Shown: one piece after another, positions 52,131-52,589 of the stretch
Position numbering within the stretch: the first letter of the stretch is position 1
Layout: every line of letters starts with the position of its first letter
Source of the DNA: Botryllus schlosseri
Taxonomy: Eukaryota
NCBI GenBank assembly: GCA_051294905.1
Contig: CM119372.1
Coordinates: 33,110,001 to 33,174,000, forward strand
Direction: 5' to 3'
DNA: 64,000 nucleotides
The notes under the pieces: model-generated
The model's input: only the letters and a program-made list of their open reading frames with translations
The model's database searches: none
What the model was told of the DNA's origin: nothing
Translations under genes and position numbers: made by a program

Positions 52131-52589
52131 CTGTAAAATTGATACCGCGTGGCTACATTCAACACTTGGGAATATTAAACTAGTGTTACTTACAATGGGG
52201 TTTCTTTTTCGGTATCTTCCTTGGATCTTTATACTAAACAAGTAACACGTCAAACTATGTCGCTAACATAGTAATATAACAGATAACTCACCAGTAGACT
52301 TGTGTATCCCACTTAATCATTGAGTTCGCTTTGTCTGTTCAACAACAAAATCATTACATCATGCTCAATAGTTCTACACAGTAATAACTCACCGTATCAA
52401 TTCTTTAATCCCACGGTTGTTTTGTCTGGTGGATAAATAAATAACAAATTATATTCATAAATCAAAGTATTCGCACCGAATAACTTACCTATCAAACCTT
52501 AATCCCTATGTCAATGTAATCTCTATATGTAAACTATATAAATCTAATGACATAACCGACTTGAGATATGAAATAATGTTATCCACCTG
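52131..52589 (-). other. Predicted micro-exon/intron array upstream of pPolB
   Basis: Four GT(A/G)AGT...YAG introns of 63, 58, 58 and 63 bp: 52488-52426, 52392-52335, 52291-52234, 52193-52131. Confidence 0.7.

Follow-up and report, generated by a model that had tools for sequence, protein, structure and literature searches.

The polymerase gene of a Polinton family in Botryllus schlosseri is preceded by a conserved, non-coding leader with several introns, and this leader probably sits within an early operon that is resolved by the host spliced leader (SL). The chain of micro-exons that forms it was found in the window (the whole stretch of 64,000 nucleotides that was analysed), in a 16.2-kb Polinton/Maverick element at 39836-56020. 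We consider it quite likely that the chain serves the gene for terminal protein (TP) and polymerase as a non-coding 5' leader that is spliced in cis, here in a second copy that stands behind a captured SL acceptor.

The element has the repeats, AG(T) ends and target duplication of a Polinton: its TIRs of 793 bp are 99% complementary, and an identical 6 bp flanks both of its ends. The minus strand carries a 235-aa ORF, the exon chain, pPolB, two small genes, a P-loop ATPase and an rve integrase. The features needed here, apart from the leader chain itself, are the following.

39836..56020, no strand: Polinton/Maverick element, with 793-bp TIRs (39836-40628 and 55228-56020), AGTAGT ends and a 6-bp target-site duplication
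53584..53591, minus strand: TATA-like box upstream of the TP gene, the presumed promoter of the early unit
52795..53502, minus strand: stand-alone TP-like ORF of 235 aa, with the D1/TP domain (53283-52798) after a 73-codon extension
52587..52794, minus strand: spacer of 208 nt with a G+T-rich tract and no GTRAG, closing with an unpaired acceptor AG (52588-52587)
48537..52130, minus strand: pPolB, 1197 aa (PF03175), with a TP remnant of ~79 aa that is internally deleted, then a vOTU-like region and the polymerase domains
48429..48536, minus strand: G+T-rich spacer of 108 nt, with the host SL joined to its terminal acceptor in 15 reads (loose end at 48430)
47934..48428, minus strand: ORF of 164 aa, of no known family, starting right at the trans-splice acceptor
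47787..47933, minus strand: spacer of 147 nt, with the host SL joined to its terminal acceptor in 68 reads (loose end at 47788)
47330..47786, minus strand: two-exon gene, weakly paralogous to the 48428 ORF; RNA reads confirm its cis intron of 91 nt (47605-47515)

pPolB scored above the cut-off for PF03175 (E 1.9e-07), as a protein-primed family B polymerase should, and was 40% identical to another PF03175 protein over 1198 columns; its vOTU-like region was named from motifs and from PMC11071308. The integrase (45967-44897) showed PF00665 (E 2.6e-16) together with a chromo domain, and is thus of the retrovirus-like type, while the ATPase gave a weak match to Pox_A32 (E 0.0076). ORFs 42376-41105 and 41168-40665 had no meaningful match in Pfam or NCBIfam, nor had the second one in the PDB; the capsid and protease genes are assumed from position alone, with no confirmation from profiles. 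The two small genes (48428-47934 and 47786-47330) belong to no known family and are weak paralogues of each other (E 3e-4 and 3e-3 for two pieces), and the first found no usable match in an atlas search. The downstream cassette gave 40 genomic matches, 39 of them nearly full-length, and the viral contigs searched for pPolB gave no locus.

A 43-nt piece of the TIR is repeated at 53624-53666, just upstream of the TP promoter, and at 55442-55484, and the TIRs also contain 25/32-bp sub-repeats. TATAAATA boxes were seen on the minus strand at 46680, 44905, 42807 and 41109, in the tightly packed half that runs from integrase to protease, which suggests separate promoters there, in contrast to the early unit. 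Elsewhere in the window, a 1384-aa ORF (32477-36631, plus strand) encodes the five Rpb1 domains of RNA polymerase, all in a single unbroken frame and without an intron though the animal genome bears introns, and host short-unit repeat arrays with ~37-nt units and GTAATC runs occupy 15138-17053 and 21261-23661.

The leader chain lies between the spacer that follows the TP-like ORF and pPolB.

52489..52586, minus strand: leader exon E1, 98 nt, a decayed duplicate of the initial ~100 nt of the 48428 ORF
52426..52488, minus strand: intron I1, 63 nt, GTAAGT..CAG, predicted from sequence and conservation
52393..52425, minus strand: micro-exon E2, 33 nt, non-coding (mostly 33 or 39 nt in copies)
52335..52392, minus strand: predicted intron I2, 58 nt, GTGAGT..CAG
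52292..52334, minus strand: micro-exon E3, 43 nt (mostly 36 or 43 nt in copies)
52234..52291, minus strand: predicted intron I3, 58 nt, GTGAGT..TAG here, with an AAG acceptor in many copies
52194..52233, minus strand: micro-exon E4, 40 nt (mostly 37 or 40 nt in copies)
52131..52193, minus strand: predicted intron I4, 63 nt, GTAAGT..CAG, its acceptor adjoining the pPolB ATG at 52130

The original prediction described four perfect donors, each with a YAG 58-63 nt further on, exons of 98, 33, 43 and 40 nt and a last acceptor that adjoins the pPolB ATG, and these coordinates and lengths were all correct. In a 465-nt region that was picked post hoc, four GTRAGT donors each followed by a YAG within 55-70 nt arose in only 2 of 20,000 dinucleotide shuffles, and the four donors alone in 19 of 20,000. 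Four of the ten minus-strand GTRAGT sites of the 16.2-kb element fall within these 300 nt. It had also been proposed that the chain grew by tandem amplification of one exon-intron unit, but this claim fared poorly: one of six unit pairs and none of six intron-interior pairs exceeded shuffled sequences, and the single pair that did (I1E2 versus I2E3; z 3.25, 0/500) was measured against a null that ignores generic acceptor signals. Introns of ~60 nt and exons of ~40 nt suffice to give a ~100-nt period.

We searched the 495-Mb genome for relatives with two leader queries, which gave at least 40 and at least 41 matches (the best 40 of 224 and of 149 candidates). Thirty loci were taken per query, and the copy counts that follow are lower bounds, skewed toward the queries. 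The 60 loci yielded 57 distinct chains. The GT of introns I1 to I4 was kept in 55, 56, 57 and 57 of these, the AG in 54, 57, 56 and 56, and in 56 chains an ATG came immediately after the last acceptor; among the departures are a partial copy, a recombinant and two cases that look like shifts of the alignment. After removal of 8 duplicates, the partial copy and the recombinant, 47 rows remained for comparison. Mean pairwise identity was 0.971 in the 32 core splice columns versus 0.808 in the other columns (0/100,000 permutations), a statistic that, like the ATG statistics, overstates independence because the copies are related and mosaic. Micro-exons E2-E4 (0.784) and intron interiors (0.817) were both less well kept, and the expectation that splice sites would be more conserved than intron interiors was thus borne out. 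The mosaic character of the family is indicated by the recombinant (locus L024, ~546-1000 of the coding strand), in which a window-type promoter and the first codons of the TP extension are joined to E2. Intron lengths as aligned in the 57 rows were 57-69 nt, apart from one I1 of 97 nt with an internal duplication; the available sections of PMC4122922 place the peak of Ciona intron lengths at 60 bp. Introns I1-I4 thus combine conserved donors and acceptors with a host-like length, as spliceosomal GT-AG introns do. Selection on splicing would be expected to produce just such a difference between the splice sites and the bases around them, and we regard I1-I4 as very probably spliced.

The chain occurs in two settings. 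In 25 copies, as in the window, it stands behind an acceptor, and in 32 it follows a promoter-type first exon, of which there are at least three unrelated kinds with a TATA-like box. The promoter-type chains lead to a fused TP-polymerase in 13 cases, to a split layout in 9 (TP ends and is succeeded by an acceptor-type chain), to a TP-less polymerase in 5 and to an unclassed product in 5. A complete TP core followed none of the 25 acceptor-type chains, and the pPolB of the window opens with a TP remnant that lacks its middle. Since the same chain precedes both the fused TP-polymerase (13/32) and the stand-alone TP (9/32), the leader chain of the window is a duplicate produced when TP separated from the polymerase. 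The simplest history would start from a spliced leader on a fused gene, followed by duplication of leader and TP and then by reciprocal loss, the order of these events being our reconstruction.

The stand-alone TP of the window is the 235-aa ORF upstream of the chain. A full HMMER search found 578 relatives at E<=0.001, and 7 of the 13 long ones that were scanned carry PF03175 further on; a word-index search for longer relatives gave none and an atlas search gave no usable match. The ORF is homologous to the N-terminal domain of pPolB, the same domain being fused to polymerase in the 13 sister chains, and it stops where the TP domain of pPolB stops. Its structural model (pLDDT 92) has the order strand-helix-strand-strand-strand-helix-loop-strand, with Ser, Pro and Thr in the loop ahead of the last strand. 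This agrees with the D1 fold as given in the available part of PMC11071308, namely a four- or five-stranded sheet and two helices, with a Ser or Tyr near a Pro or Gly in the loop ahead of the last strand. The best viral structural match of the model was an adintovirus protein (E 2e-4). Against the PDB, Y-family little-finger domains reached Z 3.6-4.5 only, and the top match, an ATP-grasp enzyme (Z 5.3), was rejected as unrelated and not meaningful. By homology and predicted fold the ORF is a terminal protein, with a putative role in priming. In 16 of the 25 acceptor-type copies, the window included, the place of the chain ahead of TP is taken by an intronless extension of 73 codons; this acidic extension (53502-53284, minus strand) had no Pfam match, and the old TP start codon after it is now GTG, within a perfect donor hexamer GTGAGT at 53283.

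The small genes downstream of pPolB provided direct evidence on how their messages are made. The bulk RNA of run X23 contained 15 reads that left the element at 48430 and 68 that left it at 47788, and all ran into one shared foreign sequence; these reads, like the other RNA reads, speak for the family and are not assignable to the copy in the window. The start of the loose-end sequence on the coding strand is presumably the end of the template-switch adapter, with the leader after it. The consensus of the loose ends is absent from the window, and its reverse complement matches the 'Chordata 1' SL in Table 1 of PMC3795323. Thus, in this Polinton family, two small genes are SL trans-spliced exactly at their ATG. 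That the foreign sequence was simply a genomic neighbour of the element was rejected, in view of its absence from the window and of the dissimilarity to the element of the 8 loci viewed among its 254 exact genomic matches. The 22-mer of the host SL is itself dispersed: the 8 places viewed (L061-L068) have unlike surroundings and resemble insertions headed by the SL more than a single array of SL RNA genes.

The acceptor in front of the leader chain resembles these two. In G+T content the 110 nt ahead of the 52587 acceptor rank first in the element, at 0.77 against a median of 0.50, and the sequences ahead of the 48429 and 47787 acceptors rank 3rd and 5th. The first acceptor and E1 are paralogous to the acceptor and gene start at 48430/48428 (z 5.1 and 8.2; 0/500 shuffles each). 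Where the paralogue has its ATG, E1 has GTG, as do 24 of the 25 acceptor-type chains (GCG in the other one), and the upstream ATG within E1, at 52553 in the window, is retained in 24 of 25 copies. No GTRAG donor lay between the TP stop and the 52587 acceptor in any of the 23 measurable spacers (2 others were not measurable). The paralogy to 48430-48429 therefore leads us to infer that 52588-52587 is an SL trans-splice acceptor, and the pPolB message probably carries the SL at 52586.

The three spacers of 208, 108 and 147 nt between these same-strand cistrons contain no GTRAG, TATAAA or AATAAA, and their shortness is that of an operon. Two of the three downstream cistrons carry the SL (15 and 68 reads), and the third acceptor, that of pPolB, is thinly covered. 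From the SL reads at the two acceptors behind pPolB, and from the donor-less, paralogous first acceptor, the early genes look like an operon resolved by the host SL and not like a set of messages with an adenovirus-type shared leader. It is likely, though somewhat less so than the SL on pPolB, that they start out as one polycistronic early transcript.

The RNA data for the chain itself were sparse. Four runs were mapped, of which the two raw ones were covered to ~6% and ~3%, and the 85% filter may drop diverged micro-exons. No I1-I4 junction was among the joints listed, at a raw depth of just 0-1.4 in 51991-52532, nor was an SL at 52587 among the loose ends listed, at the thin coverage of that acceptor. 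The mapped runs likewise gave neither a dicistronic precursor nor a start site. In run X1, which may contain DNA, one contig was unspliced across 52440-52775 and another linked a promoter-type first exon to I1, also unspliced. On the other hand, the 91-nt cis intron at 47605-47515 was removed in 22 reads of X23, in 1 read of X21 and in 1 contig of X1, which indicates that transcripts of the family do undergo splicing. Single-cell depth rose toward the 3' ends of all four cistrons, to 2.2 for TP, 7.4 and 4.7 for pPolB, and 7.1, then 12.6 and 26.6 for the small genes, the second of which is the best-expressed part of the mapped stretch. If the library is 3'-tagged, as we assumed (the run record is silent on this), these peaks point to separately polyadenylated cistrons, the TP peak being only 2.2.

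We propose the following explanation. The ancestral state would have been a promoter exon and three micro-exons, separated by four introns of host size and leading to the ATG of a fused TP-vOTU-polymerase; this layout exists in sister copies. Tandem duplication of leader and TP would then have given a stand-alone TP with a TP-deleted polymerase behind it, a layout that is present among the copies. The second chain would have lost its promoter exon and gained, as the paralogy indicates, a copy of a trans-splice acceptor of the element itself with ~100 nt of the next gene, whose ATG became GTG. A single early transcript comprising TP, pPolB and the two small genes would be cut into separate messages by host SL trans-splicing, and the mature pPolB message would read SL-E1-E2-E3-E4-ORF. 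The leader might tie translation to complete splicing and deposit splicing marks on an intronless ORF of 3.6 kb, thereby favouring its export, while the upstream ATG in E1 might damp polymerase output relative to TP. That micro-exons persist as such a splicing-dependent gate on translation and as a source of splicing marks has, in our estimate, about an even chance; the idea comes from the introns, which hold 3-10 ATGs per copy, and from E2-E4, which hold almost none. It is rather doubtful that they are relics of once-coding micro-exons, and less likely again that they have no role beyond the need to be removed. The fullest version of the proposal, in which the four early genes form one host-SL operon, the captured acceptor enabled the TP split by providing the polymerase half with a capped message to itself, and the intron-gated leader sets the ratio of TP to polymerase, is tentative, and we place it somewhat below even. 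Of the claim that a multipartite leader controls the polymerase, the multi-exon spliced leader has thus stood, through the conservation of its splice sites, whereas control of expression is still a conjecture. The prediction did not include the trans-splicing context, the promoter-linked second chain of sister elements or the split of TP from polymerase.

The foremost alternative, which we consider improbable, is cis-splicing as in adenovirus. An upstream viral donor, either GTGAGT at 53283 in copies of the window's type or the donor of a promoter-linked chain in the others, would skip TP and join 52587 or 52131, giving the TP and polymerase messages a shared viral 5' exon. The hexamer at 53283 is indeed in phase with the pPolB ATG and is found in 15 of the 16 copies of the window's type, and copies with a chain ahead of TP have four donors there. 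The conservation of the hexamer can, however, be explained by coding, since it lies on the ancestral TP start, one base from ATGAGT. Furthermore, no such joint was among those listed, at low depth, and the paralogous acceptor takes the host SL. The earlier suggestion of an adenovirus-like shared viral leader therefore has to be abandoned for the two acceptors behind pPolB: both could be tested, reads show the host SL on each, and the joints listed include no cis joint that leads to either.

Less probable still is that the chain is a discarded leftover of the duplication, with the SL joined directly at 52131 or with an internal promoter inside the chain. This would fit with the AG directly ahead of the ATG at both confirmed SL sites, with the lack of junction reads and with the TATAAA at the start of E4 in the window's variant. 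This box reads CATAAA in many copies, however, and among the 25 acceptor-type copies the donors of I1 to I4 are unaltered apart from a single +6 substitution, with acceptors other than YAG or AAG in 2. Moreover, a nearby upstream donor diverts a trans-splice acceptor to cis-splicing in nematode rol-6, according to the available text of PMC3074122, which makes direct SL addition at 52131 less likely.

We also considered that the micro-exons code for a basic N-terminal peptide of pPolB. As first predicted, E3 and E4 of the window are open in the pPolB frame from an ATG at 52320, and E2 has an in-frame stop; the length variants of E2 and E4, which differ by 6 and 3 nt, would also suit a coding function. 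The copies told otherwise. Among 45 distinct chains (duplicates removed; 4 rows that were partial, recombinant or misaligned skipped), the pPolB frame was open through E4 in 15 and through E2-E4 in 6, and met an in-frame stop in E4 in 30. An in-frame ATG connected to the pPolB ORF in only 4, all of acceptor type, and the ATG at 52320 is restricted to the window's subgroup. Micro-exon lengths differ among copies by 1, 3, 6 and 7 nt, the last in E3, and exons are no better kept than introns, so that a coding extension is very improbable at present; a coding past is possible. E2-E4 contained 7 ATGs in 5,204 nt where 76 were expected from composition, and 39 of the 45 chains had none, while the introns contained 271 in 11,150 nt (250 expected). 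This scarcity fits exons that stay in the 5' UTR, and would be weak evidence by itself, one ancestral leader being expected to hold only ~1.7 ATGs. By the counts of stops and start codons, we reject the coding extension and take micro-exons E2-E4 to be non-coding. Finally, chance motifs in an A+T-rich spacer that is never spliced would agree with the lack of junction reads and with the unspliced contigs of run X1, but are hardly credible in view of the shuffles (2/20,000), the selective retention of the splice columns and intron lengths held within 57-69 nt.

Polintons are annotated as intronless sets of ORFs, and the literature, as far as its available parts go, is nearly silent on their transcripts. 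The available text of PMC8097293 describes intact vertebrate Mavericks as having intronless ORFs and genes without introns. The string 'splic' does not occur in PMC8502044, PMC8097293 or PMC11071308, the available parts of PMC3691228, PMC4893630, PMC10748475 and PMC12721341 say nothing about Polinton splicing, and PMC4402516 has nothing on trans-spliced retroelements of Oikopleura. The trans-splicing of eri-6/7, in the available part of a preprint, is guided by repeats and is non-SL. Our literature search, which took in few subscription papers and no supplements, found no introns, spliced leaders or SL operons described for Polinton genes. The intron, the four-intron leader and the host SL found in this family indicate that annotation by ORFs alone misses real gene structure. 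That the family combines fused, split and TP-less arrangements, with leaders in duplicate, suggests a concrete route by which TP can leave the polymerase, a step proposed for the origin of adenoviruses. If the full proposal is true, the SL machinery made an adenovirus-like split of TP and polymerase possible, and its fused, split and TP-less states are found in one genome.

In its TIRs, 6-bp target duplication, pPolB, rve integrase and ATPase, the element is like other Polintons/Mavericks (adintoviruses), as these are described in the available parts of PMC8097293 and PMC8502044. It differs from the intact vertebrate elements of PMC8097293, in the part available, by one RNA-confirmed intron, four predicted ones and two SL-bearing genes. 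A separate TP gene is known for the hood-coral polinton, and in the available text of PMC11071308 both this element and adenovirid pTP/Pol have TP as its own gene with the vOTU-like domain left on the polymerase, as here. Unlike in these, so far as that text describes them, this one family has fused, split and TP-less layouts side by side, and its split copy has kept a duplicate spliced leader behind a captured acceptor.

With the SL operons of Ciona (PMC1488885, in part) and of nematodes, the early unit shares closely spaced same-strand genes, the SL on downstream cistrons (here on two of three) and spacers without AATAAA. Ciona operons mostly lack intercistronic DNA according to the same partial source, whereas the stop-to-acceptor spacers here are 108-208 nt, nearer to the ~100 nt quoted there for Caenorhabditis; also unlike these operons, the unit is part of a virus-like element. 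In Hydra, ~30% of long reads from TEs carry the host SL (available part of PMC12220107), a bulk statistic in which, as far as that part goes, Mavericks, operons and leaders are not resolved; mobile elements were thus already on record as users of host trans-splicing. In the present family, the RNA-confirmed intron, the conserved four-intron leader and the host SL together point to nuclear, host-style RNA processing that is tuned to a trans-splicing chordate. The tripartite and E2B leaders of adenovirus also put a few small untranslated exons in front of a gene for replication, and the adenovirus leader is viral and shared among messages by cis-splicing. Unlike in adenovirus, the two tested genes here have the host SL as their common 5' piece, and the micro-exon chain owes its recurrence to duplication of DNA.
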